From UHGV virus genome UHGV-1643955: a stretch of 15,449 nt of DNA. The stretch is one strand, 5' to 3'. This DNA comes from a virus. The translations under genes and the position numbers were made by a program. The notes beneath the pieces are model-generated. The model was not told where the DNA came from. It did not search any database and saw only the letters and a program-made list of their open reading frames with translations. This document shows positions 73-15,449 of the stretch, piece by piece (within the stretch, counting starts at the first letter, position 1; the number at the start of each line of letters is the position of its first letter).

Positions 73-91
73 GGCGAGGCGGGGAAAGCAC
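73..91 (+). other. cos: P2-type cohesive-end site (cos): the 19-nt sequence GGCGAGGCGGGGAAAGCAC
   Basis: Exact string ggcgaggcggggaaagcac read at 73-91, matching the 19-nt P2 cohesive end as I recall it. It lies about 170 bp beyond the end of Q, where cos sits in P2. Not verified by search. Confidence 0.7.
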
Positions 92-233
92 TGCGCGCTG
101 GCGGTGGTGCTGATTTTATTTTTTCAGCGTCTCAGCGCGTCGTGACGGCGCTTAGTCTGCCCGTTGAGGCGTTGGTGTGTCTGCGGGGTGTTTTTTGCGG
201 TGGTGAGCGTGTGAGGGCGTGATGACGGGGTGT

Positions 234-255
234 AAAAAAGCCGCCAGCAGGCGGC
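234..255 (-). terminator. Rho-independent terminator candidate downstream of Q
   Basis: Plus strand reads aaaaaa(234-239) g ccgcc agca ggcgg c. On the minus strand this is a 6-bp GC stem (GCCGCC/GGCGGC, 240-245 and 250-255) with a 4-nt loop, followed by TTTTTT, starting 5 nt after the Q stop codon (261-263). Confidence 0.6.
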
Positions 256-260
256 GATGT

Positions 261-1295
261 TCAACCGTTGTCAGTGTCCAGTGAGTAGTTTTTAAAGCGG
301 ATGACCTCCTGACCGAGCCAGCCGTTTATTTCCCGAATTCTGTCCTGTAACGGGATAAGCTCATTGCGGACAAAGACCTTTGCCACTTTCTCAATATCTC
401 CCAGTGACCCGACGTTCTCCGGCTTGCCGCCCATCAACTGAAAGGGGATACGGTGCGCGTCCAGCAGGTCAGCGGCGCTGGCTTTTTTGATATTAAAAAA
501 ATCGTCTTTCGTTGCCACTTCACTGAGCGGGATAATTTTTATGCCGTCGGCTTTCCCCTGCGGCGCATAGAGAAACAGATTTTTAAAGTTGTTGCGGCCT
601 TTCGACTTAACCATGTTTTCGCGAAGCATTTCGATATCGTTGCGATCCTGCACGGCATCAGTGACGTACATGATATATCCGGCATGAGCACCGTTTTCGT
701 AATACTTGCGGCGAAACAGCGTGGCCGACTCATTCAGCCAGGCAGAATTAAGGGCGCTGAGATATTCCGGCAGGCCGTACAGCTCCTGATTAATATCCGG
801 CTCCAGCAGGTGAAACACGGAGCCGGGCGTGAAGGCTGTCGGCTCGTTGAAGGACGGCACCCACCAGTAAACATCCTCTTCCACACCACGGCGGGTATAT
901 TTTGCCGGTGAGGTTTCCAGTCTGATGACCTTACCGGTGGTGCTGTAACGCTTTTCCAGAAACGCATTACCGAACACCAGAAAATCCAGCACAAAGCGGC
1001 TGAAATCCTGTTGTGAAAGCCACGGATGCGGGATAAATGTCGAGGCCAGAATATTGCGTTTGACGTAAATCGGGGAGCTGTGATGCACGGCGGCACGCAG
1101 GCTTTTTGCCAGACCGGTAAAGCTGACCGGTGGCTCATACCATCTGCCGTTACTGATGCATTCGACGTAATCAAGAATGTCACGGCGGTCGAGTACCGGT
1201 ACCGGCTCGCCAAAGGTGAATGCCTCCATTTTCGGGGCGCTGGCGATCATTATTTTTGCCGCAGGTTGCGGTGTTTTCCCTTTTTTCTTGCTCAT
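261..1295 (-). CDS. Q: Portal (capsid portal vertex) protein, P2 gpQ homolog
   Basis: 344-aa ORF, the length I recall for P2 gpQ; sits next to the terminase large subunit at the left end beside cos. Its ATG (1293-1295) overlaps the P stop by 1 nt. Confidence 0.9.
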   Translation of the reverse strand: MSKKKGKTPQPAAKIMIASAPKMEAFTFGEPVPVLDRRDILDYVECISNGRWYEPPVSFTGLAKSLRAAVHHSSPIYVKRNILASTFIPHPWLSQQDFSRFVLDFLVFGNAFLEKRYSTTGKVIRLETSPAKYTRRGVEEDVYWWVPSFNEPTAFTPGSVFHLLEPDINQELYGLPEYLSALNSAWLNESATLFRRKYYENGAHAGYIMYVTDAVQDRNDIEMLRENMVKSKGRNNFKNLFLYAPQGKADGIKIIPLSEVATKDDFFNIKKASAADLLDAHRIPFQLMGGKPENVGSLGDIEKVAKVFVRNELIPLQDRIREINGWLGQEVIRFKNYSLDTDNG

Positions 1296-3067
1296 CAGTA
1301 AAACTCCAGAATGGTGGATGTCAGCGGGGTGCTGATACCGGCGGTGAGTGGCTCATTTAACAGGGCGTGCATGGTCGCCCAGGCGAGGTCGGCGTGGCTG
1401 GCTTCCTCGCTGCGGCTGGCCTCATAGGTGGCGCTGCGTCCGCTGCTGGTCATGGTCTTACGGATAGCCATAAACGAGCTGGTGATGTCGGTGGCGCTGA
1501 CGTCGTATTCCAGACAGCCACGGCGGATAACGTCTTTTGCCTTGAGCACCATTGCGGTTTTCATTTCCGGCGTGTAGCGGATGTCGCGCGCGGCAGGATA
1601 GAACGAGCGCACGAGCTGGAACACGCCGACACCGAGGCCGGTGGCATCAATACCGATGTATTCGACGTTGTATTTTTCGGTGAGTTTGCGGATGGATTCC
1701 GCCTGGGTGGCAAAGTCCATGCCTTTCCACTGGTGACGCTCAAGTATTCTGAATTTGCCACCGGCCACCACCGGCGGTGCCAGCACCACGCATCCGGCGC
1801 TGTCGCCACGGTGTGACGGGTCGTAACCAATCCATACCGGGCGGGAGCCGAACGGATTGGCGGCAAAGGGTGCATAGTCTTCCCATTCTTCCAGCGTGTC
1901 GACCATGCAGCGTTGCAGCTCCTCGAACGGGAACACCGATGCCTTGTCGTCAACAAATTCACACATGAACAGGTTTTTAAAATCGTCGGCGCTGTTTTCG
2001 CGTTTGAGCTGCTCAATGTCGAACAGCGTGCAGCCGCCTTTCAGCGCGTCCTCAATGGTGACAATCTGTCGCCACTGGCCGTCCGCACAGAGAAGCCCAC
2101 CGGCAAGGGCGTTATGACTGACGTCGATTTCCACGCGTTCGGCGGCGCTGGCGCGTCCCCGGTTAAACAGTTCACCCGACCAGAACGGGTAGGCGTCGTG
2201 CGCCAGCGTGGACGGGGTGGAGAAATAGGTCGAGCGCAGGTGACTCTGTGAGGCCATACCTGATGCCACCTTACGCAGTACCTGAAAATTCGGGATCCAG
2301 AAAATCTCGTCGACGTACAGGTCGCCGTTATGGCTCTGCGCGGTGTTGGAGTTGGTGCCGAGAAAAATCAGTTTTGCGCCGTTATTGCCCAGGACAATCG
2401 GGTCACCGGTCAGGTCAACGTCAACCTGCCGGGCAAAGGCGATGATGTATTCGCGGAACACATACGCCTGCGTTTTACTGGCCGACAGAAAAATCTGGTT
2501 ATGACCGGTTTTCAGGGCGCGCAGCAGCGCCTCGCGGGAAAAATAAAACGTCGCGCCAATCTGGCGGGATTTCAGGATATCGCGGATGCGGTGCTCAAGC
2601 CCGGCGCGATACCAGTGCAACTGATAGTCGAAAGACTGCTCAAAGAAAATCTGCTCCAGCTTTTCGATAGCCTCGTCACTGAAAAAATTCTTTTTCGGTT
2701 TGCGACGCCCGCCTTTGTTGCGGTTAGCGACGTTCGGATTAAGGTCTGCCTCGTTGCCGGTCTGGCTGTAGCGGTTTACCCGTGCCAGTCGTTCAATCTG
2801 GCGTCCGAGCAGGTCAATTTCCTTGAAGTCACCGCCGGTTTTCTGCGGTTTGATGATGAGCTGGGTCAGCCGCGCTTCCAGGCTCATTTCGACACGGCTG
2901 ATGGGGGCAACGCTGTCCCAGCCGTCGCGCTGTTTCCAGCTCTGCACCGTCGGGCGTTTCATCTGCAACATGGCGGCAATCTGCGGCACGGAAAACCCCT
3001 GCCAGTACAGCAGCGCCGCCTGACGACGCGGGTCGTGTGAAAGAGTGGTGTCTGTGGTGATGGTCAT
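1295..3067 (-). CDS. P: Terminase large (ATPase) subunit, P2 gpP homolog
   Basis: The ORF track gives 600 aa from 3097, but that first codon is TTG (complement of caa at 3095-3097). The first ATG is at 3067 (MTITTDTTLSHD...), giving 590 aa, which matches the P2 gpP length as I recall it. A GAGG lies a few nt upstream on the coding strand. Confidence 0.9.
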   Translation of the reverse strand: MTITTDTTLSHDPRRQAALLYWQGFSVPQIAAMLQMKRPTVQSWKQRDGWDSVAPISRVEMSLEARLTQLIIKPQKTGGDFKEIDLLGRQIERLARVNRYSQTGNEADLNPNVANRNKGGRRKPKKNFFSDEAIEKLEQIFFEQSFDYQLHWYRAGLEHRIRDILKSRQIGATFYFSREALLRALKTGHNQIFLSASKTQAYVFREYIIAFARQVDVDLTGDPIVLGNNGAKLIFLGTNSNTAQSHNGDLYVDEIFWIPNFQVLRKVASGMASQSHLRSTYFSTPSTLAHDAYPFWSGELFNRGRASAAERVEIDVSHNALAGGLLCADGQWRQIVTIEDALKGGCTLFDIEQLKRENSADDFKNLFMCEFVDDKASVFPFEELQRCMVDTLEEWEDYAPFAANPFGSRPVWIGYDPSHRGDSAGCVVLAPPVVAGGKFRILERHQWKGMDFATQAESIRKLTEKYNVEYIGIDATGLGVGVFQLVRSFYPAARDIRYTPEMKTAMVLKAKDVIRRGCLEYDVSATDITSSFMAIRKTMTSSGRSATYEASRSEEASHADLAWATMHALLNEPLTAGISTPLTSTILEFY

Positions 3068-3240
3068 GAATACCTCGCCGTGATGAATACACGGCAAGGC
3101 TACTGAGTCGCGCCACGCGATTCGCTAAGGTGCTGTTGTGTCAGTGATAAGCCATCCGGGACTGATGGCGGAGGATGCGCATCGTCGAGAAACTGATGCC
3201 GACATGTGACTCCTCTACTCACTATTCAGGACTCCTGACA
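3068..3240. promoter_or_regulatory. Divergent intergenic region between P and O; expected site of the P2 late promoters PP (leftward) and PO (rightward)
   Basis: 173-bp gap between divergently transcribed late operons, as in P2. I could not confidently place an Ogr-type TGT-N12-ACA dyad or -10/-35 elements by eye, so this is positional inference only. Confidence 0.4.
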
Positions 3241-4095
3241 ATGGCAAAAAAAGTCTCAAAATTCTTTCGTATCGGCGTTGAGGGTGACACCTGTGACGGG
3301 CGTGTCATCAGTGCGCAGGATATTCAGGAAATGGCCGAAACCTTTGACCCGCGTGTCTATGGTTGCCGCATTAATCTGGAACATCTGCGCGGCATCCTGC
3401 CTGACGGTATTTTTAAGCGTTATGGCGATGTGGCCGAACTGAAGGCCGAAAAGATTGACGATGATTCGGCGCTGAAAGGCAAATGGGCGTTGTTTGCGAA
3501 AATCACCCCGACCGATGACCTTATCGCGATGAACAAGGCCGCGCAGAAGGTCTACACCTCAATGGAAATTCAGCCGAACTTTGCCAACACCGGCAAATGT
3601 TATCTGGTGGGGCTGGCCGTCACCGATGACCCGGCAAGCCTCGGCACGGAATACCTGGAATTCTGCCGCACGGCAAAACACAACCCCCTGAACCGCTTCA
3701 AATTAAGCCCTGAAAACCTGATTTCAGTGGCAACGCCTGTTGAGCTGGAATTTGAAGACCTGCCTGAAACCGTGTTCACCGCCCTGACTGAAAAGGTGAA
3801 GTCCATTTTTGGCCGCAAACAGGCCAGCGATGATGCCCGCTTGAATGATGTGCATGAAGCGGTGACCGCTGTTGCTGAACATGTGCAGGAAAAACTGAGC
3901 GCCACTGAGCAGCGCCTCGCTGAGATGGAAACCGCCTTTTCCGCACTTAAGCAGGAGGTGACTGACAGGGCGGATGAAACCAGCCAGGCATTCACCCGCC
4001 TGAAAAACAGTCTCGACCACACCGAAAGTCTGACCCAGCAGCGCCGCAGCAAGGCCACCGGTGGTGGCGGTGACGCCCTGATGACGAACTGCTGA
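3241..4095 (+). CDS. O: Capsid scaffolding protein, P2 gpO homolog
   Basis: Start taken at ATG 3241 (MAKKVSKFFRIGVEGD...) with AGGA about 10 nt upstream; this gives 284 aa, matching recalled P2 gpO. The upstream ATG at 3175 directly abuts a GGAGG with no spacer, so it is less plausible. Confidence 0.85.
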   Translation: MAKKVSKFFRIGVEGDTCDGRVISAQDIQEMAETFDPRVYGCRINLEHLRGILPDGIFKRYGDVAELKAEKIDDDSALKGKWALFAKITPTDDLIAMNKAAQKVYTSMEIQPNFANTGKCYLVGLAVTDDPASLGTEYLEFCRTAKHNPLNRFKLSPENLISVATPVELEFEDLPETVFTALTEKVKSIFGRKQASDDARLNDVHEAVTAVAEHVQEKLSATEQRLAEMETAFSALKQEVTDRADETSQAFTRLKNSLDHTESLTQQRRSKATGGGGDALMTNC

Positions 4096-4153
4096 CCGGC
4101 GTCAGTCAGTCCGGGAAAACCTTCACGATTAACCCTTAATTTCAGGAAAAACT

Positions 4154-5227
4154 ATGCGCCAGGAAACCCGCTTTAAATTTAATGCTTACCTGTCCCGTGT
4201 TGCCGAACTGAACGGCATCGACGCCGGTGATGTGTCGAAAAAATTCACCGTTGAACCGTCGGTCACCCAGACCCTGATGAACACCATGCAGGAGTCCTCT
4301 GACTTTCTGACCCGCATCAACATTGTGCCGGTCAGCGAAATGAAAGGGGAAAAAATTGGTATTGGTGTCACCGGCTCCATCGCCAGCACCACCGACACCG
4401 CCGGTGGCACCGAGCGTCAGCCGAAGGACTTCTCGAAGCTGGCGTCAAACAAGTACGAATGCGACCAGATTAACTTCGATTTTTATATCCGCTACAAAAC
4501 GCTTGACCTGTGGGCGCGTTATCAGGATTTCCAGCTCCGTGTCCGTAACGCTATTATCAAACGCCAGTCCCTTGATTTCATCATGGCCGGTTTTAACGGC
4601 GTGAAGCGTGCTGAAACCTCTGACCGCAGCAGCAATCCGATGTTGCAGGATGTGGCGGTCGGCTGGCTGCAGAAATACCGCAATGAAGCCCCGGCGCGCG
4701 TGATGAGCAAGGTCACTGACGAGGAAGGCCGCACCACCTCTGAGGTTATCCGCGTGGGTAAGGGCGGTGATTATGCCAGCCTTGATGCACTGGTGATGGA
4801 TGCGACCAACAACCTGATTGAGCCGTGGTATCAGGAAGACCCTGACCTTGTGGTGATTGTGGGACGTCAGCTACTGGCGGACAAGTATTTTCCCATCGTC
4901 AACAGGGAGCAGGACAACAGCGAAATGCTGGCCGCTGACGTCATCATCAGCCAGAAACGCATCGGTAACCTGCCGGCAGTGCGCGTCCCGTACTTCCCGG
5001 CAGATGCGATGCTCATCACGAAGCTGGAAAACCTGTCCATCTACTACATGGATGACAGCCATCGCCGCGTGATTGAGGAAAATCCGAAACTCGACCGCGT
5101 GGAGAACTACGAGTCAATGAATATTGATTACGTGGTGGAAGACTACGCCGCCGGTTGCCTGGTGGAAAAAATTAAGGTCGGTGATTTCTCCACACCGGCC
5201 AGGGCGACCGCAGAGCCGGGAGCGTAA
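4154..5227 (+). CDS. N: Major capsid protein, P2 gpN homolog
   Basis: 357-aa ORF (MRQETRFKFNAYLSRVAELNG...), same length and position as P2 gpN; AGGA upstream of the ATG. Confidence 0.9.
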   Translation: MRQETRFKFNAYLSRVAELNGIDAGDVSKKFTVEPSVTQTLMNTMQESSDFLTRINIVPVSEMKGEKIGIGVTGSIASTTDTAGGTERQPKDFSKLASNKYECDQINFDFYIRYKTLDLWARYQDFQLRVRNAIIKRQSLDFIMAGFNGVKRAETSDRSSNPMLQDVAVGWLQKYRNEAPARVMSKVTDEEGRTTSEVIRVGKGGDYASLDALVMDATNNLIEPWYQEDPDLVVIVGRQLLADKYFPIVNREQDNSEMLAADVIISQKRIGNLPAVRVPYFPADAMLITKLENLSIYYMDDSHRRVIEENPKLDRVENYESMNIDYVVEDYAAGCLVEKIKVGDFSTPARATAEPGA

Positions 5228-5230
5228 CCG

Positions 5231-5974
5231 ATGACGAGTCCCGCACAGCGCCACATGATGCGGGTCTCGGCAGCGATGACCGCGCAGCGGGAAGCCGCCC
5301 CGCTGCGACATGCAACTGTCTATGAGCAGATGCTGGTCAAGCTGGCCGCAGACCAGCGCACACTGAAAGCGATTTATTCAAAAGAGCTTAAGGCCGCGAA
5401 AAAGCGCGAACTGCTGCCGTTCTGGTTGCCGTGGGTGAACGGTGTGCTGGAGCAGGGCAAAGGTGCACAGGATGACATTCTGATGACGGTCATGCTGTGG
5501 CGTCTGGATACCGGCGATATTGCAGGTGCGCTGGAGATTGCCCGTTATGCCCTGAAATACGGTCTGACCATGCCGGGTAAACACCGCCGCACCCCGCCGT
5601 ACATGTTCACCGAGGAGGTGGCGCTCGCGGCCATGCGTGCTCACGCTGCCGGTGAGTCTGTGGATACCCGCCTGCTGACGGAGACCCTTGAACTGACCGC
5701 CACGGCTGACATGCCTGATGAAGTGCGCGCAAAGCTGCACAAAATCACAGGTCTGTTTCTGCGTGATGGTGGTGATGCCGCCGGTGCGCTGGCTCACCTG
5801 CAACGTGCGACACAGCTCGACTGTCAGGCAGGTGTCAAAAAAGAGATTGAACGACTGGAGCGGGAGCTGAAACCGAAGCCGGAGCCGCAGCCCAAAGCGG
5901 CCACCCGTACCCCGCGTAAGACCCGGAGCGTGACACCGGCAAAACGTGGACGCCCGAAAAAGAAAGCCAGTTAA
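5231..5974 (+). CDS. M: Terminase small (endonuclease) subunit, P2 gpM homolog
   Basis: 247-aa ORF starting 3 nt after the N stop, GGAG upstream; basic lysine/proline-rich C-terminus (KPKPEPQPKAATRTPRKTRSVTPAKRGRPKKKAS). Confidence 0.85.
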   Translation: MTSPAQRHMMRVSAAMTAQREAAPLRHATVYEQMLVKLAADQRTLKAIYSKELKAAKKRELLPFWLPWVNGVLEQGKGAQDDILMTVMLWRLDTGDIAGALEIARYALKYGLTMPGKHRRTPPYMFTEEVALAAMRAHAAGESVDTRLLTETLELTATADMPDEVRAKLHKITGLFLRDGGDAAGALAHLQRATQLDCQAGVKKEIERLERELKPKPEPQPKAATRTPRKTRSVTPAKRGRPKKKAS

Positions 5975-6073
5975 CAACCGAATGCGCCCCGCGCCAGGGC
6001 GGCACGCCGGTCAGTGAGGGTGAATCACCTGACACTGCACCGGCGTCCACCGCCCGACTTTTCAGAGGTAGTC

Positions 6074-6583
6074 ATGATGACGCTGATTATTCCGCGAAAG
6101 GAGGCTCCCGTGTCCGGTGAGGGTACGGTGGTCATCCCGCAACCGGCAGGCGACGAGCCGGTGATTAAAAACACGTTCTTTTTTCCCGATATCGACCCGA
6201 AGCGCGTCCGGGAACGTATGCGCCTTGAGCAGACCGTCGCCCCCGCCCGTCTGCGTGAGGCCATCAAGTCAGGCATGGCTGAAACGAATGCGGAGCTGTA
6301 CGAGTACCGCGAACAGAAAATTGCCGCCGGTTTTACGCGTCTGGCTGACGTCCCGGCGGACGACATCGACGGTGAAAGCATCAAAGTTTTTTACTACGAG
6401 CGCGCCGTGTGTGCGATGGCGACCGCATCGCTTTATGAGCGTTACCGCGGCGTGGATGCCAGTGCGAAAGGCGACAAGAAGGCCGACAGCATTGACAGCA
6501 CCATTGATGAACTGTGGCGGGATATGCGCTGGGCGGTGGCGCGTATCCAGGACAAGCCGCGCTGCATCGTGAGTCAAATCTGA
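6074..6583 (+). CDS. L: Head completion/stabilisation protein, P2 gpL homolog
   Basis: Start taken at ATG 6074 (MMTLIIPRKEAP...) with GAGG upstream, giving 169 aa as recalled for P2 gpL. The longer form in the ORF track has no RBS. Confidence 0.85.
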   Translation: MMTLIIPRKEAPVSGEGTVVIPQPAGDEPVIKNTFFFPDIDPKRVRERMRLEQTVAPARLREAIKSGMAETNAELYEYREQKIAAGFTRLADVPADDIDGESIKVFYYERAVCAMATASLYERYRGVDASAKGDKKADSIDSTIDELWRDMRWAVARIQDKPRCIVSQI

Positions 6584-6786
6584 TGAAGACCTTTGCGCTA
6601 CAGGGCGACACGCTCGACGCCATTTGTGTCCGGTATTACGGGCGCACTGAGGGCGTGGTCGAAGCCGTGCTCGCCGCAAATCCGGGACTGGCTGAACTGG
6701 GTGCGGTGCTGCCACACGGCACCGCCGTCGAACTGCCCGACGTTCAGACCGCGCCCGTGGCTGAAACTGTCAATCTGTGGGAGTAA
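6583..6786 (+). CDS. X: Tail protein X, P2 gpX homolog (small LysM-like protein)
   Basis: 67-aa ORF MKTFALQGDTLDAICVRYYGRTEGV...; its ATG overlaps the L stop (tgATGa at 6581-6585). Confidence 0.8.
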   Translation: MKTFALQGDTLDAICVRYYGRTEGVVEAVLAANPGLAELGAVLPHGTAVELPDVQTAPVAETVNLWE

Positions 6787-6789
6787 CGC

Positions 6790-7071
6790 ATGACAGCAGA
6801 AGAAAAAAGCGTCCTGTCGCTTTTCATGATTGGGGTGCTGATTGTTGTCGGCAAGGTGCTTGCCGGTGGTGAACCCATCACCCCGCGTCTGTTTATCGGG
6901 CGCATGTTGCTCGGTGGTTTTGTCTCGATGGTTGCCGGTGTTGTTCTGGTGCAGTTTCCTGACCTGTCACTGCCTGCGGTGTGCGGCATCGGCTCCATGC
7001 TGGGTATCGCCGGTTATCAGGTGATTGAGATTGCCATTCAGCGCCGCTTTAAGGGCAGGGGGAAACCGTAA
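6790..7071 (+). CDS. Y: Holin, P2 gpY homolog
   Basis: 93-aa ORF with hydrophobic transmembrane stretches (LSLFMIGVLIVVGKVLAGG, LLGGFVSMVAGVVLVQF) and a charged C-terminus; first gene of the lysis cassette; GGAG upstream. Confidence 0.85.
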   Translation: MTAEEKSVLSLFMIGVLIVVGKVLAGGEPITPRLFIGRMLLGGFVSMVAGVVLVQFPDLSLPAVCGIGSMLGIAGYQVIEIAIQRRFKGRGKP

Positions 7072-7568
7072 TGCCGGTAATTAACACGCATCAGAATATC
7101 GCCGCCTTTCTCGACATGCTGGCCGCGTCCGAAGGGACGGCGAATCATCCGCTGACGAAAAACCGGGGCTATGACGTGATAGTCACCGGACTGGACGGAA
7201 AGCCGGAAATTTTCACCGACTACAGTGACCACCCGTTCGCGCATGGCCGACCGGCGAAGGTGTTTAACCGTCGCGGTGAAAAATCCACGGCCTCCGGTCG
7301 CTATCAGCAGCTTTACCTGTTCTGGCCGCATTACCGCAAACAGCTTGCCCTGCCGGATTTCAGTCCGTTGTCACAGGACAGACTCGCCATTCAGTTGATC
7401 CGCGAACGCGGTGCACTGGATGACATCCGGGCGGGACGCATTGAGCGCGCCATTTCACGCTGTCGCAATATCTGGGCGTCCCTGCCGGGTGCCGGTTACG
7501 GTCAGCGTGAGCATTCACTGGAAAAACTGGTCACCGTCTGGCGTACCGCCGGCGGCGTACCGGCTTAA
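7071..7568 (+). CDS. K: Endolysin (lysozyme / lytic transglycosylase family), P2 gpK homolog
   Basis: 165-aa ORF; its ATG shares one nt with the Y stop (taATG at 7069-7073); AGGGGG upstream. Confidence 0.9.
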   Translation: MPVINTHQNIAAFLDMLAASEGTANHPLTKNRGYDVIVTGLDGKPEIFTDYSDHPFAHGRPAKVFNRRGEKSTASGRYQQLYLFWPHYRKQLALPDFSPLSQDRLAIQLIRERGALDDIRAGRIERAISRCRNIWASLPGAGYGQREHSLEKLVTVWRTAGGVPA

Positions 7569-7582
7569 ACGGAGTAAACACC

Positions 7583-8008
7583 ATGAAGAAATTATCCCTT
7601 TCACTGATGCTGAACGTGTCGCTGGCGCTGATGCTGGCACTGTCCCTGATTTACCCGCAGAGCGTGGCCGTCAGTTTTGTCGCTGCCTGGGCGATTCTGG
7701 CGACGGTTATCTGTGTGGTTGCCGGTGGTGTCGGCGTGTATGCCACTGAGTATGTACTGGAACGCTACGGGCGGGAGCTGCCGCCGGAATCGATGGCCGT
7801 GAAGATTGTCACGTCGCTGTTTTTGCAGCCGGTGCCGTGGTGCAGACGGGCGGCGGCTCTGGTAGTGATGGTGGCGACGTTTATCTCGCTGGTTGCCGCC
7901 GGGTGGATTTTTACCGCGCTGATTTATCTTGTGGCGTCGCTGTTTTTCCGGCTGATACGTAAAGCCTGTCGTCAGCGTCTTGAGGGGCGGGAACCATGTC
8001 AAAGCTGA
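7583..8008 (+). CDS. lysA: Lysis-timing membrane protein LysA homolog
   Basis: 141-aa ORF, very hydrophobic with several predicted transmembrane segments; GGAG upstream; position after K as in P2. Confidence 0.8.
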   Translation: MKKLSLSLMLNVSLALMLALSLIYPQSVAVSFVAAWAILATVICVVAGGVGVYATEYVLERYGRELPPESMAVKIVTSLFLQPVPWCRRAAALVVMVATFISLVAAGWIFTALIYLVASLFFRLIRKACRQRLEGREPCQS

Positions 8009-8421
8009 TGATTGTGCTGGTTGTGTTGTTATCACTGGCGGTGGCCGGTCTGTTTCTGGCGAAGCATGAAAACGCCAGCCTGCGCACCTCACTGGACAGG
8101 GCGAGCAACGTCGCCAGCGGGCAGCAGACGACCATCACCATGCTGAAAAATCAGCTTCATGTTGCGCTCACCAGGGCAGACAAAAACGAGCTGGCGCAGG
8201 TGGCACTGCGTCAGGAACTGGAGAACGCCGCGAAGCGTGAAGCTCAGCGCGAGAAAACCATCACGAGATTACTCAATGAAAACGAAGATTTTCGCCGCTG
8301 GTATGGCGCTGACCTGCCTGATGCTGTGCGCCGGTTGCACCAGCGTCCGGCCTGCACTGACGCCAGTGATTGTCCCCAACGCCTGCCCGAAAGTGAGCCT
8401 TTGCCCGATGCCGGGCAGTGA
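7996..8421 (+). CDS. lysB: LysB homolog (Rz-like inner-membrane spanin)
   Basis: 141-aa ORF with an N-terminal transmembrane segment (LMIVLVVLLSLAVAGLFLA) and a charged, likely coiled-coil periplasmic part; overlaps the lysA end by 13 nt. Confidence 0.8.
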   Translation: MSKLMIVLVVLLSLAVAGLFLAKHENASLRTSLDRASNVASGQQTTITMLKNQLHVALTRADKNELAQVALRQELENAAKREAQREKTITRLLNENEDFRRWYGADLPDAVRRLHQRPACTDASDCPQRLPESEPLPDAGQ

Positions 8422-8566
8422 CCCGCAGACGAACGGCGATTTAAGTGCCGATATCCGGCAGCTTGAGAACGCGCTGGCACGCTGTGCCAGCCAGGTAAAA
8501 ATGATTAAACACTGTCAGGACGAAAACGATGCTCAAACCCGACAGCCTGCGCAGGGCGCTGACTGA
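8276..8566 (+). CDS. lysC: LysC homolog (Rz1-like outer-membrane lipoprotein spanin), nested in the +1 frame of lysB
   Basis: ATG at 8276 begins MKTKIFAAGMALTCLMLCAGC, a lipoprotein signal peptide with lipobox L-C-A-G-C; 96 aa; starts inside lysB and ends inside R, as in P2. Confidence 0.7.
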   Translation: MKTKIFAAGMALTCLMLCAGCTSVRPALTPVIVPNACPKVSLCPMPGSDPQTNGDLSADIRQLENALARCASQVKMIKHCQDENDAQTRQPAQGAD

Positions 8567-8996
8567 TGCCGTCACGGTGCTGAAAACTAACCCCGATATG
8601 CTGCGGATATTCGTGGATAACGGGAGTATTGCCTCCACACTGGCGACGTCGCTGTCATTCGAAAAGCGTTACACGCTCAATGTCATTGTGACCGACTTTA
8701 CCGGTGATTTTGACCTGCTCATCGTGCCGGTGCTGGCGTGGCTGCGGGAAAATCAGCCCGACATCATGACCACCGACGCAGGCCAGAAAAAGGGCTTCAC
8801 GTTTTATGCAGACATCAACAATGACAGCAGCTTTGATATCAGCATCAGCCTGATGCTGACCGAGCGCACGCTGGTCAGTGAGGTTGACGGTGCGCTGCAT
8901 GTGAAGAATATCCCGGAACCTCCGCCGCCGGAGCCGGTCACCCGCCCGATGGAGCTTTATATCAATGGCGAACTGGTGAGTAAGTGGGATGAATGA
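8529..8996 (+). CDS. R: Tail completion protein, P2 gpR homolog
   Basis: 155-aa ORF (MLKPDSLRRALTDAVTVLKTNPDMLRIFVDNG...), AGGA upstream, same length and position as P2 gpR. Confidence 0.85.
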   Translation: MLKPDSLRRALTDAVTVLKTNPDMLRIFVDNGSIASTLATSLSFEKRYTLNVIVTDFTGDFDLLIVPVLAWLRENQPDIMTTDAGQKKGFTFYADINNDSSFDISISLMLTERTLVSEVDGALHVKNIPEPPPPEPVTRPMELYINGELVSKWDE

Positions 8997-9441
8997 GTTT
9001 AAGCGTTTTGAAGACCGGCTGACCGGACTGATTGAATCGCTGTCACCGTCAGGGCGTCGGCGACTGAGTGCCGAACTGGCGAAACGTCTGCGGCAGAGTC
9101 AGCAGCGTCGGGTGATGGCACAGAAAGCCCCGGACGGCACACCCTACGCGCCACGCCAGCAGCAGAGCGCCAGAAAAAAGACTGGTCGTGTTAAGCGAAA
9201 AATGTTTGCGAAACTTATCACCAGTCGTTTTTTGCATATCCGCGCCAGCCCGGAGCAGGCATCAATGGAGTTTTACGGCGGGAAGTCACCGAAAATCGCC
9301 AGTGTGCATCAGTTCGGTCTGTCGGAAGAAACCCGGAAAGACGGTAAGAAAATTGATTATCCGGCGCGTCCTCTGCTCGGCTTTACCGGTGAGGATGTGC
9401 AGATGATTGAAGAGATTATCCTGGCTCACCTCGACCGTTAG
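8989..9441 (+). CDS. S: Tail completion protein, P2 gpS homolog
   Basis: 150-aa ORF (MNEFKRFEDRLTGLIESLSP...), overlaps the R end by 8 nt. Confidence 0.85.
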   Translation: MNEFKRFEDRLTGLIESLSPSGRRRLSAELAKRLRQSQQRRVMAQKAPDGTPYAPRQQQSARKKTGRVKRKMFAKLITSRFLHIRASPEQASMEFYGGKSPKIASVHQFGLSEETRKDGKKIDYPARPLLGFTGEDVQMIEEIILAHLDR

Positions 9442-9507
9442 TTGTGCCATTCCTGACACCTCATCGTCACATTGCCGCCGGTATGACCCGGCGGCATCCT
9501 TCCCGTT
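9442..9507 (+). promoter_or_regulatory. S-V intergenic region: expected late promoter PV, plus a GC-rich hairpin 12 nt upstream of the V start
   Basis: A TGT...ACA dyad at 9443-9458 (TGTgccattcctgACA) has a 10-nt spacer, not the 12-nt spacing I recall for Ogr sites. A perfect 8-bp GC stem gccgccgg/ccggcggc (9474-9481 and 9488-9495) with loop tatgac follows. No clear Shine-Dalgarno for V. Confidence 0.4.
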
Positions 9508-10143
9508 ATGAACACTCTCGCAAATATTCAGGAACTCGCGCGCGCACTGCGCAACATGATACGCACCGGCCTTGTCGTCGAAACCGACCTTAACGCCGGT
9601 CGCTGCCGTGTGCAGACCGGCGGCATGTGCACTGACTGGCTTCAGTGGCTGACCCATCGTGCCGGACGTTCGCGCACATGGTGGGCACCTTCCGTGGGGG
9701 AACAGGTGCTGATTCTGGCTGTGGGCGGTGAACTCGACACGGCGTTCGTTCTGCCGGGGATTTATTCCGGCGATAACCCCGCGCCGTCTGCGTCGGCGGA
9801 TGCCCTGTATATCCGTTTCCCTGACGGGGCGGTGATTGAGTATGAACCCGAAACCAGTGCACTCACGGTAAGCGGAATTAAAACGGTCAGCGTGACGGCT
9901 TCTGATTCTGTTACTGCCACGGTGCCGGTGGTCATGGTGAAAGCATCAACCCGTGTCACCCTGGACACACCGGAGGTGGTCTGCACCAACAGGCTGATTA
10001 CCGGCACGCTGGAAGTGCAGAAGGGCGGGACGATGCGCGGCAACATTGAACACACCGGCGGTGAACTCTCATCAAACGGTAAGGTACTGCATACCCACAA
10101 ACACCCAGGAGACAGCGGCGGCACAACCGGGAGTCCTCTATGA
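9508..10143 (+). CDS. V: Baseplate spike / assembly protein, P2 gpV homolog
   Basis: 211-aa ORF (MNTLANIQELARALRNMIRTGLVVETDLNAGRCRV...), same length and position as P2 gpV. Confidence 0.9.
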   Translation: MNTLANIQELARALRNMIRTGLVVETDLNAGRCRVQTGGMCTDWLQWLTHRAGRSRTWWAPSVGEQVLILAVGGELDTAFVLPGIYSGDNPAPSASADALYIRFPDGAVIEYEPETSALTVSGIKTVSVTASDSVTATVPVVMVKASTRVTLDTPEVVCTNRLITGTLEVQKGGTMRGNIEHTGGELSSNGKVLHTHKHPGDSGGTTGSPL

Positions 10144-10487
10144 CAGCACGTTATCTCGGAATGAATCGCAGTGATGGCCTGACTGTCACTGACCTTGAGC
10201 ATATCAGCCAGAGTATCGGCGATATCCTGCGCACACCGGTCGGCTCACGGGTGATGCGTCGTGATTACGGCTCGTTGCTGGCATCAATGATTGACCAGCC
10301 GCAGACCCCGGCGCTTGAGTTGCAGATTAAGGTCGCCTGTTACATGGCGGTGCTGAAATGGGAACCCCGCGTCATCCTGTCATCCGTCACCACTGAGCGC
10401 AGTTTTGACGGGCGAATGACGGTCACGTTAACCGGCCAGCACAACGACACCGGCCAGCCACTTTCGTTAACCATCCCTGTGAGTTGA
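10140..10487 (+). CDS. W: Baseplate wedge protein, P2 gpW homolog (gp25-like)
   Basis: 115-aa ORF; ATGA start/stop overlap with V; GGAG upstream. Confidence 0.9.
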   Translation: MTARYLGMNRSDGLTVTDLEHISQSIGDILRTPVGSRVMRRDYGSLLASMIDQPQTPALELQIKVACYMAVLKWEPRVILSSVTTERSFDGRMTVTLTGQHNDTGQPLSLTIPVS

Positions 10488-10491
10488 AACC

Positions 10492-11400
10492 ATGCCGATT
10501 ATCGACCTGAACCAGCTACCCGCACCGGATGTGGTCGAGGAGCTGGACTTTGAAACCATTCTTGCCGAACGCAAGGCGACACTGATTTCCCTTTACCCGG
10601 AAGACCAGCAGGAGGCGGTCGCCCGTACCCTGACGCTGGAATCCGAACCTCTCGTCAAACTGCTGGAGGAAAATGCTTATCGTGAGCTTATCTGGCGTCA
10701 GCGTGTGAATGAGGCCGCACGGGCGGTGATGCTGGCCTGTGCTGCCGGTAATGACCTTGATGTGATTGGTGCCAATTACAACACCACGCGCCTGATTATC
10801 ACCCCGGCAGATGATTCGACTATCCCGCCGACACCGGCAGTGATGGAATCTGACACTGATTATCGTCTGCGTATTCAGCAGGCGTTTGAAGGTTTAAGCG
10901 TCGCCGGGTCGGTGGGTGCCTATCAGTATCATGGTCGCAGTGCCGACGGGCGTGTCGCGGATATCTCTGTCACCAGCCCGTCTCCTGCCTGTGTCACCAT
11001 CTCTGTGCTGTCACGTGAAAATAACGGCGTCGCATCCGAAGACCTGCTGGCTGTGGTGCGTAACGCCCTTAATGGCGAGGACGTCAGGCCGGTGGCCGAC
11101 CGCGTGACCGTGCAGTCTGCCGCCATCGTTGAATACCAGATAAACGCCACGCTTTACCTTTACCCTGGTCCCGAAAGCGAACCCATCCGCGCTGCCGCTG
11201 TGAAAAAGCTGGAAGCGTATATCACGGCACAGCACCGGCTGGGGCGCGACATCCGTCTGTCTGCCATTTATGCCGCTTTGCATGTGGAAGGTGTGCAGCG
11301 TGTCGAACTGGCTGCACCACTGGCCGACATCGTGCTCAACAGTACGCAGGCGTCTTTCTGTACTGAATACCGCGTCGTGACCGGAGGCTCGGATGAGTGA
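10492..11400 (+). CDS. J: Baseplate assembly protein, P2 gpJ homolog
   Basis: 302-aa ORF, same length and position as P2 gpJ. Confidence 0.9.
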   Translation: MPIIDLNQLPAPDVVEELDFETILAERKATLISLYPEDQQEAVARTLTLESEPLVKLLEENAYRELIWRQRVNEAARAVMLACAAGNDLDVIGANYNTTRLIITPADDSTIPPTPAVMESDTDYRLRIQQAFEGLSVAGSVGAYQYHGRSADGRVADISVTSPSPACVTISVLSRENNGVASEDLLAVVRNALNGEDVRPVADRVTVQSAAIVEYQINATLYLYPGPESEPIRAAAVKKLEAYITAQHRLGRDIRLSAIYAALHVEGVQRVELAAPLADIVLNSTQASFCTEYRVVTGGSDE

Positions 11401-11923
11401 TTCGCGACTGCTGCCGACCGGCTCATCACCGCTTGAGGTCGCCGCCGCAAAAGCCTGTGCGGAAATTGAAAAAACGCCGGTCAGTATTCGTGAGCTGTGG
11501 AACCCGGATACCTGTCCGGCAAATTTGCTGCCGTGGCTGGCGTGGGCGTTTTCGGTCGACAGGTGGGATGAGAAGTGGCCGGAAGCGACAAAACGCGCCG
11601 TTATCCGCGATGCGTATTTCATCCACTGTCATAAAGGCACTATAGGTGCAATCCGGCGTGTGGTGGAGCCGCTCGGCTATCTCATCAACGTGACGGAGTG
11701 GTGGGAAAACAGTGACCCGCCCGGCACCTTCCGGCTTGATATTGGTGTACTGGAAAGTGGCATCACAGAGGCAATGTATCAGGAAATGGAACGGCTGATT
11801 GCTGATGCCAAACCTGCAAGCCGCCACCTTATTGGCCTGAACATTACCCGGGACATTCCCGGCTACCTGTTCGCCGGTGGTGTGGCTTACGACGGCGATG
11901 TAATTACGGTTTACCCCGGATAA
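11393..11923 (+). CDS. I: Baseplate protein, P2 gpI homolog
   Basis: 176-aa ORF, overlaps the J end by 8 nt, GGAGG upstream. Confidence 0.85.
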   Translation: MSDSRLLPTGSSPLEVAAAKACAEIEKTPVSIRELWNPDTCPANLLPWLAWAFSVDRWDEKWPEATKRAVIRDAYFIHCHKGTIGAIRRVVEPLGYLINVTEWWENSDPPGTFRLDIGVLESGITEAMYQEMERLIADAKPASRHLIGLNITRDIPGYLFAGGVAYDGDVITVYPG

Positions 11924-11933
11924 GTGAGGAATA

Positions 11934-14228
11934 ATGAGCACAAAATTCAGAACCGTTATCACCACTGCCGGTGCAGCAAAGCTGGCAGCGGCAACCGCAC
12001 CGGGAGGGCGGAAGGTCAACATTACCACGATGGCCGTCGGGGATGGCGGTGGTAAATTGCCTGTCCCGGATGCCGGACAGACCGGGCTTATCCACGAAGT
12101 CTGGCGACATGCGCTGAACAAAATCAGCCAGGACAAACGAAACAGTAATTATATTATCGCAGAGCTGGTTATTCCGCCGGAGGTGGGCGGTTTCTGGATG
12201 CGTGAGCTTGGCCTGTACGATGATGCGGGAACGTTAATTGCTGTGGCGAACATGGCCGAAAGTTATAAGCCAGCTCTTGCCGAAGGCTCAGGGCGTTCGC
12301 AGACCTGCCGCATGGTCATCATCGTCAGCAGTGTGGCCTCAGTGGAGCTGACCATTGACACCACAACGGTGATGGCGACGCAGGATTACGTTGATGACAA
12401 AATTGCAGAGCATGAACAGTCACGACGTCACCCGGACGCCTCGCTGACCGCAAAAGGTTTTACTCAGTTAAGCAGTGCGACCAACAGCACGTCTGAAACA
12501 CTGGCCGCAACGCCGAAAGCGGTAAAGGCCGCCTATGACCTTGCTAACGGGAAATATACTGCGCAGGATGCCACCACGGCGCGAAAAGGCCTTGTTCAGC
12601 TCAGTAGTGCGACCAACAGCACGTCTGAAACGCTCGCCGCAACGCCGAAAGCGGTAAAGGCCGCCTATGACCTTGCTAACGGGAAATACACTGCACAGGA
12701 CGCCACCACCGCGCGAAAAGGTCTTGTCCAGCTCAGTAGCGCCACCAACAGCGATTCTGAAACGCTTGCGGCAACACCAAAGGCGGTTAAGACAGCGTAT
12801 GACCTTGCTAACGGGAAATACACTGCACAGGATGCCACCACGGCGCGAAAAGGTCTTGTCCAGCTCAGTAGCGCCACCAACAGTGATTCTGAAACCCTCG
12901 CGGCAACGCCAAAAGCGGTGAAGTCTGCCTATGACAATGCTGAAAAACGTCTTCAGAAAGATCAGAACGGTGCGGATATTCCGGGAAAGGATACCTTCAC
13001 GAAAAATATCGGTGCCTGTCGTGCTTATAGCGGCGCTTTGAGCACTGAAGCCGGAAACTGGACAACCGCTCAGTTTATTGAATGGCTGGATTCCCGTGGT
13101 GCATTTAATCATCCGTACTGGATGTGCAAAGGCTCCTGGTCATATGCAAATAACAAAATCATTACGGATACCGGATGTGGTGATATCCACCTGGCTGGTT
13201 GTGTCGTCGAAGTCATGGGAACAAAATCTGCAATCACTATTCGAGTGACCACGCCGACAACATCAAGCGGTGGCGGTACAACCAGCGCGCAATTCACTTA
13301 CATTAATCATGGGGACGGCTACTCCCCCGGCTGGCGTCGTGACTGGAATCGTCAGGGCGACGCAATGACCGGAACGATTAATCAGGATGGCGGAAGCCAG
13401 AATGCCTATATGTCTACGGCCTTATGTTCAGGCACCAGAGGCGGCAAAAAATATCTCAGAAAGTTTCGTGGTGGAGAAGGAGACACTATCTGGCATGAAA
13501 CAGTGCAGGGCGGGGTAATTCGCTGGGCGACAGGAAACTATGACGATCAGGAAGAATTATCACTCAGCTCCGCTTATGGTCTCCGTTCTAGAGGTGGAAT
13601 TACATCACTCAGTACTAATGGTCTGCGCATTGCTTATGGCAATTATGGATTCTTTATCAGGAATGATGGCGGCAGCACATATTTAATGCTGACGGCCTCT
13701 GGCGATAAATTTGGGACATGGAACGGTTTAAGACCGCTGACTATCAATAACGCTAATGGCGGAGTGTCAATGGGGCATGGCCTGCGTGTTACTGGTGATA
13801 TTGCCTCAAGTACCAAAGTACGCGCCGGTAGCGGGAAAAAGTTCACGGTCAGCAGCAGTAATACATCCACGAAGGAAGCCGCATTCAATTTGTGGGGAAA
13901 CTCAAGTCGTCCGGTGGTGGCTGAATTAGGTGATGATGCAGGCTGGCATTTTTACAGTCAGAGAAATACAGATAACAGCATCACTTTTGCTGTTAACGGT
14001 CAGGTATCACCATCTAACTATAGTAATTTTGATTCCCGTTATGTACGCGATATCCGGCTTGGGACTCGAGTTGTCCAGACCATGCAGAAAGGGGTGATGT
14101 ATGAGAAAGCAGGGCACGTAATTACCGGGCTTGGTATTATCGGTGAAGTCGATGGTGATGACCCCGCAGTATTCAGACCAATACAAAAATACATCAATGG
14201 CACATGGTATAACGTCGCACAGGTGTAA
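11934..14228 (+). CDS. H: Tail fibre protein, P2 gpH homolog, with expanded internal repeats and a divergent C-terminal receptor-binding region
   Basis: 764-aa ORF with a conserved P2 H-type N-terminus (MSTKFRTVITTAGAAKLAAATAPGG...), GAGGA upstream. It is longer than the 669 aa I recall for P2 gpH, and about 3.7 tandem 44-aa 'tail fibre repeat' units (...QLSSATNSTSETLAATPKAVKAAYDLANGKYTAQDATTARKG...) account for much of the difference. Confidence 0.9.
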   Translation: MSTKFRTVITTAGAAKLAAATAPGGRKVNITTMAVGDGGGKLPVPDAGQTGLIHEVWRHALNKISQDKRNSNYIIAELVIPPEVGGFWMRELGLYDDAGTLIAVANMAESYKPALAEGSGRSQTCRMVIIVSSVASVELTIDTTTVMATQDYVDDKIAEHEQSRRHPDASLTAKGFTQLSSATNSTSETLAATPKAVKAAYDLANGKYTAQDATTARKGLVQLSSATNSTSETLAATPKAVKAAYDLANGKYTAQDATTARKGLVQLSSATNSDSETLAATPKAVKTAYDLANGKYTAQDATTARKGLVQLSSATNSDSETLAATPKAVKSAYDNAEKRLQKDQNGADIPGKDTFTKNIGACRAYSGALSTEAGNWTTAQFIEWLDSRGAFNHPYWMCKGSWSYANNKIITDTGCGDIHLAGCVVEVMGTKSAITIRVTTPTTSSGGGTTSAQFTYINHGDGYSPGWRRDWNRQGDAMTGTINQDGGSQNAYMSTALCSGTRGGKKYLRKFRGGEGDTIWHETVQGGVIRWATGNYDDQEELSLSSAYGLRSRGGITSLSTNGLRIAYGNYGFFIRNDGGSTYLMLTASGDKFGTWNGLRPLTINNANGGVSMGHGLRVTGDIASSTKVRAGSGKKFTVSSSNTSTKEAAFNLWGNSSRPVVAELGDDAGWHFYSQRNTDNSITFAVNGQVSPSNYSNFDSRYVRDIRLGTRVVQTMQKGVMYEKAGHVITGLGIIGEVDGDDPAVFRPIQKYINGTWYNVAQV
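12452..12936 (+). repeat. Tandem 132-bp (44-codon) direct repeats, about 3.7 copies, inside H
   Basis: The motif aaaagg[tc]...cagct[ct]agtag[tc]gc...acggcgcga recurs at 12452, 12584, 12716 and 12848, an exact 132-bp period; the fourth copy diverges after about 12936. Copies differ at only a few positions. Confidence 0.85.
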
Positions 14229-14231
14229 TTT

Positions 14232-14756
14232 ATGCAACATTTAAAAAATATTACTGCGGGTAATCCAAAAACTGTTGCCCAATATCAACTGACAAAAAAT
14301 TTTGATGTTATCTGGTTATGGTCCGAAGAGGGAAAAAACTGGTATGAGGAAGTAAGTAATTTTCAGGAGGACACGATAAAGATTGTTTACGACGAGAATA
14401 ATATAATTGTCGGCATCACCCGAGATGCTTCAACGCTTAACCCTGAAGGTTTTAGCGTTGTTGAGGTTCCTGATATTACTGCCAACCGACGTGCTGATGA
14501 CTCAGGTAAATGGATGTTTAAGGATGGTGCCGTGATTAAGCGGATTTATACGGCAGACGAACAGCAACAACAGGCAGAATCACAAAAGGCCGCGTTACTT
14601 TCCGAAGCGGAAAGCGTTATTCAGCCACTGGAGCGCGCTGTCAGGCTGAACATGGCAACAGATGAGGAGCGTAGCCGACTGGAAGCATGGGAACGCTACA
14701 GTGTTCTGGTCAGCCGTGTGGATCCTGCAAATCCTGAATGGCCGGAAATGCCGTAA
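14232..14756 (+). CDS. G: Tail fibre assembly chaperone, P2 gpG homolog
   Basis: 174-aa ORF immediately after H (4-nt gap). The C-terminus (...[25 protein letters not shown]) resembles the conserved Tfa C-terminal region. The N-terminal half is AT-rich: I counted 19 G+C in the 60 nt of 14281-14340. Confidence 0.85.
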
Positions 14757-14781
14757 TAAGTGATATGATCTCTTGTGTTAG

Positions 14782-14868
14782 TTAACATAGCTATAGTACA
14801 GAGTAAGGCCTAATCTGACAGTCCGCTCTGTGCTAGGAGCGGACATTATCAACATCATGCTATGTTAA
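14782..14868. repeat. Nested inverted repeats at the boundary between G and the AT-rich cargo region
   Basis: Outer 10-bp perfect inverted repeat ttaacatagc (14782-14791) and gctatgttaa (14859-14868). Inside it, a perfect 8-bp stem gtccgctc (14821-14828) and gagcggac (14837-14844) with an 8-nt loop. No T-run follows on either strand, so it is not a canonical intrinsic terminator. Confidence 0.5.
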
Positions 14869-15148
14869 TGTATAAAGTGAAGATAAATTGATATAATAAG
14901 GCCACCATGAATATTTCAGAACCTTGTCAAAAGGTTTGCACATACTCTAGTCTTGCAATGTGTAGTTGATAGTTCCACTGAGGAGGTTCTTCGACATTCT
15001 TTATAAAAATGTACATTTTCATCAATAATAAGAGGTAAAAGGGCTTTAATAGTTTTTTGTGGATGTTATTTCTACTCATAAATTTTGAGATAAGTATTGA
15101 GTTGAGATAAAGTTAAACTCGTTAAATTCACCTTTAAAAGGATAAAGC

Positions 15149-15402
15149 ATGGACTGGAAAGATCTTGCATCAACTGCTGTGTATACAGGTATGACTGATG
15201 AAAATGAAAGCATATGGGAACGTGTTGATGGGGTTGACGTTGCCTTCATAGGTGCCTTTCTTACTGCGCACTTGAGCCTTGAAAAGTATATTACTGATTA
15301 TCTTGGATTAAGATATCCTTCGTTAGCTTGGGGTGATGCAAAACTCACATTTTCACAAAAAATAGCTTTAATACAACATGAGCCTGCAAAACCCCCTTAT
15401 GA
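15149..15402 (+). CDS. Partial ORF of unknown function (5' end only), first cargo gene of the G-FI hotspot; truncated by the contig end and adapter
   Basis: ATG at 15149 preceded by AAGGA (about 15138-15142). Open frame MDWKDLASTAVYTGMTDENESIWERVDGVDVAFIGAFLTAHLSLEKYITDYLGLRYPSLAWGDAKLTFSQKIALIQHEPAKPPYD runs straight into the adapter at 15403. AT-rich, unlike the phage backbone. I do not recognise the protein. Confidence 0.45.
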
Positions 15403-15449
15403 CTGTCTCTTATACACATCTGACGCTGCCGACGATATGCAGTGTGTAG
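15403..15449 (+). other. Illumina Nextera adapter read-through (technical artefact, not biological sequence)
   Basis: CTGTCTCTTATACACATCT (reverse complement of the Tn5 mosaic end) + GACGCTGCCGACGA + TATGCAGT (reverse complement of ACTGCATA, which I recall as i5 index N506/S506) + GTGTAG (start of the reverse-complemented P5 sequence GTGTAGATCTCGGTGG...). Confidence 0.9.

Follow-up and report, generated by a model that had tools for sequence, protein, structure and literature searches.

A previously unannotated solo HEPN-fold gene in the G-FI slot of a P2-like prophage

Introduction

The 15,449-nucleotide stretch of the virus genome UHGV-1643955 analysed here (the window) is the late part of a prophage of the P2-like (Peduovirus) type, and the AT-rich DNA that follows its tail fibre assembly gene G, at positions 14757-15402, raises the question of what kind of gene the prophage carries there. 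A sequence-only reading had taken this region for foreign cargo in the variable slot between genes G and FI, where P2 carries Z/fun. The one open reading frame (ORF) visible in it is cut off by the contig end after 84 residues, and that reading could place it in no family and allowed that it might be the first gene of a multi-gene island. Here we ask how the ORF continues, to which family its product belongs, whether it has a partner, and how it came to lie where it does. The gene is a new, previously unannotated solo HEPN gene of defence type, of a kind that is already known.

HEPN proteins are metal-independent endoribonucleases, and in their four-helix up-down bundle an insert separates helix 2 from helix 3 (Anantharaman et al. 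2013, PMC3710099). Their signature consists of an Rx4-6H motif with a polar residue (N, D or H) right after the arginine, and of an acidic residue in helix 1, typically within Ex3[KR]; the non-catalytic MtlR members of the superfamily have lost Rx4-6H (PMC3710099). A solo HEPN protein, HepS (STM14_3211; PDB 9oij and 9oik), is encoded by the Salmonella prophage Gifsy-1 and is non-toxic at rest, where it forms an inactive tetramer; a phage structural protein, the tail-tip protein, activates it as a tRNA anticodon nuclease that cuts anticodon loops (Sargen et al., Nature 2026, PMC13043305). Proteins of the HepS type have a single HEPN domain, are shorter than 250 aa, lack a conserved partner or inhibitor gene and are often encoded on prophages; 393 PSI-BLAST homologues are listed in that study, the close ones forming a clade of 35-50% identity (PMC13043305). 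In P2-like phages the main defence hotspot is the site between GpA and the portal gene (PMC9122126, PMC13586616). Defence hotspots within the P2 tail genes are mentioned in a 2026 survey, which describes the recombination processes behind P2/P4 hotspot swapping as "still to be elucidated" (PMC13586616).

Results

The cassette carries one intact gene

The ORF begins with an ATG at position 15149, 6 nucleotides after the ribosome-binding site AAGGA (15138-15142, plus strand), and 84 complete codons can be read, as the sequence-only reading had described. It is interrupted at 15402/15403, where the phage DNA gives way to the mosaic end CTGTCTCTTATACACATCT, followed by GACGCTGCCGACGA, an 8-nucleotide index and the start of flow-cell sequence (15403-15449, no strand assigned); we take this stretch to be read-through into an Illumina Nextera transposase adapter. 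The identity of the window to the corresponding locus of genome NZ_CP070170 (locus L001; window coordinate = L001 + 5756) likewise ends exactly at 15402. The first cargo gene is indeed cut by the contig end, and this truncation is an assembly artefact that marks no biological boundary. Because the reads were assembled without adapter trimming, the artefact may recur at further contig ends of this assembly.

At full length and at least 99% identity, the 646 bases of the region recur in 50 of 5426 complete Escherichia coli genomes (about 1%), always on the chromosome, and they are also present in a Peduovirus record, phage vB_EcoM-569R9. The identical DNA of NZ_CP070170 supplies the complete ORF, which encodes a protein of 175 aa labelled "hypothetical protein" (WP_001461859.1). 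The first 84 of its 175 codons lie in the window (15149-15402, plus strand); they encode the beta-hairpin region at the N terminus as well as helix 1, in which H41 and E45 are invariant. The catalytic-motif residues R98-N99-x3-H103 fall past the window end. In complete genomes the tail sheath gene FI follows about 300 bp after the cargo gene, and the interval holds a strong intrinsic terminator (L001 10095-10115) and then a conserved region before FI. With the downstream sequence recovered through to FI, the cassette carries exactly one intact cargo gene, and the suggestion that the ORF might open a multi-gene island fell away. The sequence-only reading had also set out the opposite outcome, in which the ORF would be a short phage gene, conserved and with FI coming straight after it. 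There is only one gene, as that outcome would have it, but it is mobile cargo, found in those 50 of 5426 E. coli genomes, and not part of the P2 backbone.

The ratio of nonsynonymous to synonymous substitution rates (dN/dS) of the cargo gene is 0.06-0.22 in every pair with an estimable dS, which shows the ORF to be a real gene under purifying selection. About 110 nucleotides past the stop codon are conserved together with the gene. Two sub-threshold Rfam matches at L001 9876-10125, STnc150 (21 bits, gathering threshold 60) and isrF (17 bits, gathering threshold 40), run through conserved sequence, from the cargo gene's 3' flank up to the terminator before PF. Both are Hfq-binding small RNAs (sRNAs) of Salmonella, and the matches probably reflect homology to a P2-like prophage region in that genus, not a real sRNA.

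The product has a HEPN fold and a conserved catalytic motif

Scans of the full 175-aa protein against Pfam, NCBIfam and PADLOC gave no significant match; phrog_5483, whose function is unassigned in PHROGs, was the only library match, and DUF6548 scored below threshold. The earlier verdict that the ORF belongs to no assignable family is thus borne out for curated libraries, which recognise nothing beyond phrog_5483, but not for deep profiles and structure prediction, which on the complete ORF place the protein in the HEPN superfamily.

A word-indexed orthologue search yielded 24 clusters, 20 of which were aligned, all at least 59% identical; the close orthologues with a named source are all from Enterobacterales, and the segments DFNxIRNKxSHxLNY and FIGxFLTAHLSxE are invariant in 21 orthologues. 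An exhaustive HMMER search enlarged the family to 368 clusters (50% identity) at E<=1e-3, and 128 of the best 150 hits listed, of these 368 clusters, are 140-230 aa long. Giant proteins with many "stretches" that also surfaced in this search lack the motif and were discarded as spurious. Across a 70-sequence alignment reaching down to about 20% identity, H41, E45 and R98 do not vary, and conservation is at least 90% at N95, N99 and H103; the pattern N-x-h-R-N-x3-H is present in 160 of 174 fetched proteins. The motif of the cargo protein, R98-N99-K-I-S-H103, fits the HEPN Rx4-6H signature with a polar residue after the arginine. Helix 1 contributes the invariant E45 alongside H41, and the position +4 from E45 is not K or R.

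An AlphaFold2 model built from the 70-sequence alignment (predicted local distance difference test score, pLDDT, 92.6; predicted template modelling score, pTM, 0.83) replaced a first model from 21 close orthologues (pLDDT 72.6). It consists of one domain, a four-helix up-down bundle whose helices 2 and 3 are separated by an insert, as in other HEPN proteins. Structure searches returned a long series of HEPN proteins, including AF0298, HI0074, HEPN-MNT toxins, sacsin, AbiA, Cas13b, AbiF, Las1 and Csm6. Individual family members weakly match several HEPN models of Pfam and the CARF-HEPN, Csm6 and Cas13b models of PADLOC. A HEPN fold is well supported by these profiles and by the predicted structure, and we consider it highly probable that the protein is catalytically competent.

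HepS is the closest characterised relative

In a Foldseek search with the model, the four HepS chains ranked first (probability up to 1.0), with template modelling (TM) scores of 0.43-0.49. The 70-sequence profile matches HepS at E=7.7e-7, over about 42 residues around the catalytic motif only, and its next match is the HEPN domain of Csm6, at 0.005. In the alignment, R98/H103 correspond to R100/H105 of HepS (the residue mutated in 9oik). P0086, taken as a bridge to HepS, gave weak matches (Csm6 0.04, HepS 0.23). Judged by profile and model, HepS is the closest characterised relative of the cargo protein. The two are single-domain HEPN proteins of about 175-205 aa, with R-N-K-x-x-H at a nearly equal position and short N-terminal beta-strands before the helical core, and each is encoded by an accessory gene that stands alone on a temperate prophage and lacks a conserved partner. 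They differ in carrier, the cargo gene lying in a tail-gene slot of a P2-like myovirus and HepS on a lambdoid siphovirus, and in the C terminus, which is predicted to be helical in the cargo protein, whereas HepS uses a strand there to bind its trigger. Membership of the HepS clade is not supported by the sequence comparison, because identity in structural alignments is 16-18%, against 35-50% within that clade, and the profile match is local.

None of the Pfam or PADLOC models for AbiV, AbiF/AbiD, AbiU2, AbiJ and the HEPN-MNT toxins matches the cargo protein. AbiF and type III-like HEPN proteins have a cognate noncoding RNA, and HEPN-MNT toxins pair with an MNT antitoxin; neither a cognate noncoding RNA nor an MNT gene was found beside the cargo gene.

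Relatives lie in defence-type contexts without a conserved partner

The proposal that the region holds defence-type cargo is strengthened by the whereabouts of relatives elsewhere. On the P2-like viral contig L023, the gene sits between GpA and the portal/terminase genes and adjoins an FRG-domain gene. The L007 copy comes after the tail fibre gene of a myovirus and directly adjoins an AbiGi-domain gene, and in Enterobacter pasteurii (L015) the gene is followed by an AbiV-family HEPN gene (6564-7190) and a DUF2971 gene. The island that holds it in Superficieibacter (L026) also contains a SIR2-STAND gene, HicB/SymE pairs and RhuM. The Pectobacterium copy (L009) lies near a DUF2971 gene and genes for a helix-turn-helix protein and a reverse transcriptase, and the Serratia copy (L005) beside genes of a conjugative element.

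Across eight contexts no neighbouring gene is conserved, which indicates a gene that acts on its own or together with host factors. No nucleotidyltransferase-domain (MNT) gene or other antitoxin-type neighbour occurs in any context examined. An RNA partner was also considered and rejected, since there are no tandem repeats and no Rfam family at threshold near the gene, and the flanks hold no conserved RNA structure (0 conserved pairs upstream; -1.2 kcal/mol downstream).

Three contexts have a HEPN-like gene immediately upstream (L009 5284-5784, L013 5194-5706 and L014 5181-5693), and that of Pectobacterium L009 is a true paralogue of the cargo family (hhalign 97.6%). As an observation in its own right, the solo HEPN gene often adjoins a HEPN-type gene of a different kind, namely this paralogue, a gene with the motif KKRNWLAH in Superficieibacter and Dryocola, and the AbiV-family gene in Enterobacter.

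The upstream gap holds a dead gene and expression signals

The distance from the end of G to the start of the ORF is 392 bp, in agreement with the non-coding leader of roughly 390 bp that had been noticed. This "leader" is not non-coding throughout: it is composed of a palindromic boundary element, the frameshifted stump of a HEPN-like gene (gene A) and the promoter region and ribosome-binding site of the cargo gene. Positions 14809-15056 (L001 9053-9300) are homologous to L013 5102-5367 (E=2e-29) and L014 5087-5239 (E=2e-41), and the homology covers the 5' untranslated region and the first ~45 codons of gene A. In Superficieibacter and Dryocola gene A is intact directly upstream of the cargo gene; it encodes 170 aa with the motif KKRNWLAH and weakly matches RiboL-PSP-HEPN. 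In the window, DNA homology and tblastn of the intact proteins delimit the pseudogene stump at 14907-15056 (plus strand). The reading frame that opens at ATG 14907 is kept for codons 1-18 (MNISEPCQKVCTYSSLAM, 14907-14960), codons 28-42 follow in a shifted frame (14969-15013), and the remainder is deleted. No intact gene A was found in complete E. coli genomes or phage records. By this comparison, gene A was lost in E. coli through a frameshift and a deletion.

A putative promoter region extends over 15085-15128 (plus strand), with TTGAGA at 15085-15090 and 15102-15107 and A/T-rich -10-like hexamers at about 15108-15128. The second TTGAGA, which is -35-like, and a -10-like xAAtxT are kept across six genomic contexts, and AAGGAT is invariant in 6 of 6 orthologous loci. 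A scan for consensus promoters returned TTGAGA-17-TAAAGT, with no more matches than in shuffled sequence. Homology to the proximal upstream region of the orthologues resumes at about 15068/15097, so the putative promoter region appears to move along with the gene.

An inverted pair of palindromic elements brackets the cassette

The left copy of the boundary element, of about 40 nucleotides (CCTAATCTGACAGTCCGCTCTGTGCTAGGAGCGGACATTATCA), lies at 14809-14851 on the plus strand and contains an internal hairpin formed by GTCCGCTC (14821-14828) and GAGCGGAC (14837-14844); its inverted partner lies past the window end, at L001 9997-10039. The cargo is bracketed by a 35-nucleotide inverted repeat that is 80% complementary. 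The same element follows G in P2, YpM_22 and P2_4A7b, and it also precedes the cargo in non-phage islands.

Copies around the cargo were mapped in six contexts with an nhmmer profile. In several places a plus-strand copy lies upstream of the cassette and a minus-strand copy 90-120 bp past the stop codon. Such a pair flanks the cassette in the G-FI slot (L001 9053-9095 and 9997-10039), in the GpA-portal slot (L023 5802-5843 and 6610-6645) and in Serratia, and more weakly in Pectobacterium and Superficieibacter. In Superficieibacter the copies lie at L026 9101-9143 and 14577-14609, the strong minus-strand copy closing a 5.5-kb block that includes the SIR2-STAND gene. The pair also brackets fun(Z) in P2 (L004 1324-1365 and 3434-3469). 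Across loci, the palindrome-containing element is ATCnAATCTGACAGTCCGCTCTGTGCCAGGAGCGGACAT. In Serratia, where it lies at L005 4219-4291, 5864-5934, 6612-6648 and 8687-8755, REPIN-like double-hairpin units of about 72 nucleotides recur between neighbouring genes.

The predicted RNA fold of the element is marginally better than that of shuffled sequences (z=-1.9). It is present in 1670 of 5426 E. coli genomes, with a median of one copy per positive genome. A genome-wide repetitive extragenic palindrome of E. coli was considered for it and rejected, as about one copy per positive genome fits P2-like prophages. We know of no resemblance to attC or to gix/hix sites, and no target-site duplication was seen at the cassette. 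The element may be an insulating hairpin or terminator, a recombination substrate for cassette exchange, or both hairpin and substrate.

The G-FI slot has several unrelated occupants

The left border of the slot is the last backbone gene, G, which encodes a 174-aa protein (14232-14756, plus strand, from the ORF list); the label "tail fiber assembly protein" comes from identical DNA in NZ_CP070170 and phage vB_EcoM-569R9. G+C content is 0.556 over positions 1-14756, 0.327 over 14757-15148 and 0.398 over 15149-15402. The sharp fall in composition after G noted from the sequence was reproduced exactly on recounting, with 16 G+C in the 60 nucleotides of 15061-15120.

Comparison with the Z/fun region of P2 confirmed the identity of the slot and its variability. 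P2 carries fun(Z) there (528 aa, opposite strand), YpM_22 and 720R8 a 373-aa ORF (L011 3722-4843), and P2_4A7b ORFs of 69 and 163 aa (L012 3939-4649), so that four unrelated occupants are seen among otherwise collinear P2-like phages. Location between G and FI, variability and atypical composition all agree with the description of the region as AT-rich foreign cargo. The 175-aa cargo protein is unrelated to the 373-aa and 163-aa ORFs and to Fun(Z) (hhalign probability 0.13). Fun(Z), the product of a non-essential lysogenic-conversion or exclusion gene that blocks T5, shares with it the G-FI position and the same inverted palindromic pair, and differs in length (528 against 175 aa), strand and sequence. 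A Pfam scan of Fun(Z) and the 373-aa and 163-aa ORFs, with the 69-aa ORF left out, found no domain. Fun(Z) (L004 1676-3262) and the 373-aa, 69-aa and 163-aa ORFs represent further uncharacterised cargo of the slot.

The tail region has a second variable slot, between S and V (window 9441-9508, compared with L001 2446-3752). The prophage of NZ_CP070170, otherwise near-identical, carries there an extra gene on the minus strand for a 359-aa RelA/SpoT-domain protein (PF04607, E=2e-21), annotated as GTP pyrophosphokinase and likely of toxSAS type; the S-V junction of the window is only 66 bp.

Discussion

On balance, we think it probable that the cassette is a mobile unit bearing a stand-alone, HepS-like abortive-infection RNase. 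By analogy with HepS, the lysogen would produce the cargo protein constitutively, using the gene's own promoter, and the protein would rest as an inactive oligomer and hence need no antitoxin. A protein of a superinfecting phage would then switch it on, and the activated protein would cut cellular RNA, tRNA being the best guess. Infection would be aborted, and the lysogenic population and its prophage would be protected.

Several points weigh against this proposal. The resemblance to HepS is limited to 16-18% identity, TM scores of 0.43-0.49 and a profile match of about 42 residues centred on the motif; PADLOC, a collection of defence models, does not recognise the protein; and promoter matches upstream of the gene are no more numerous than in shuffled sequence. 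The oligomeric state, the trigger and the substrate are proposed purely by analogy. It is also possible that the system was ancestrally one of two genes, of which the E. coli copy may be a crippled survivor; the purifying selection on the cargo gene and the spread of the E. coli copy argue against such a survivor.

In one explanation that we find unlikely, the cargo protein is the toxin of a bipartite system and its partner is absent or has escaped notice. That partner could be gene A, a peptide or small RNA from the conserved flanks (type III or AbiF-like), or a factor encoded elsewhere. The tandem HEPN-like genes upstream in L009, L013 and L014 would suit such a system, as would the stump of gene A that forms the E. 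coli leader and the ~110 nucleotides after the stop codon that are conserved with the gene. However, at least five independent contexts (the P2 slot of E. coli, Serratia, L007, L015 and L023) have the gene but no gene A, and it is still under strong purifying selection; the upstream partner of L009 belongs to a different family from that of L013 and L014. Nor do the surroundings of the gene offer an MNT or other antitoxin-type neighbour, tandem repeats, an Rfam family at threshold or conserved RNA structure in the flanks. Where the cargo protein is instead taken for a non-catalytic regulator or RNA-binding protein of the MtlR/YggD type (PDB 3brj, 3c8g and 6kcr), the gene would be one of lysogenic conversion that modulates host or phage expression without killing. 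MtlR/YggD proteins act in mannitol operon regulation and many of them lack Rx4-6H, whereas the cargo protein keeps the motif and R98, N99, H103 and E45 are invariant or nearly so in 70 diverse sequences. Moreover, the sequence profiles select the HEPN nucleases HepS and Csm6 and give no link to MtlR, and the gene resides in phage hotspots and in defence or toxin-antitoxin islands, not in a mannitol operon. No mannitol or phosphotransferase-system (PTS) genes neighbour it in the phage contexts, and the PTS genes of Superficieibacter L026 are more than 5 kb away, on the other strand and outside the island. A regulator of this type is accordingly quite unlikely.

Alternatively, the gene may serve the phage itself, as a non-defence accessory gene (a nuclease aiding the prophage's own lytic cycle, or an anti-defence factor) transcribed by read-through out of the late V-G operon. 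It shares its strand with the late genes, no T-tract accompanies the hairpin after G, and a strong terminator is met only past the cargo, just before PF (L001 10095-10115). We nevertheless regard this explanation as very unlikely: about 1% of E. coli genomes have the gene, most P2-like prophages lack it and carry different cargo in the slot, and it is also found with its own promoter region in non-phage chromosomal islands of Serratia, Pectobacterium, Superficieibacter and Enterobacter, where its neighbours are defence or toxin-antitoxin genes.

A bolder extension of the abortive-infection proposal would combine two claims. The family of 368 clusters would be a second independent lineage of solo HEPN abortive-infection sensors, with a trigger specificity unlike that of HepS (for example a non-P2 structural protein, with P2's own being ignored), and the palindromic elements would serve as substrates for the recombination by which defence cassettes move among phage hotspots and islands. 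That both hold together seems doubtful to us.

If the abortive-infection proposal is correct, the gene would be an unannotated single-gene anti-phage system present in about 1% of sequenced E. coli, on P2-like prophages, and would belong to a larger HEPN family, likewise unannotated, that escapes today's defence finders. It would be a natural comparison for HepS as well, with the same scaffold carried by a myovirus in one case and by a siphovirus in the other, so that the trigger is presumably different, and it could help to explain how the sensing of a phage is linked to RNase activation in solo HEPN proteins, which have no antitoxin. The anatomy of the cassette, with its inverted palindromic flanks, its dead neighbour gene and its residence in two P2 hotspots and several islands, catches the turnover of defence genes in the act, and the palindromic element provides a concrete candidate sequence for the recombination substrate.

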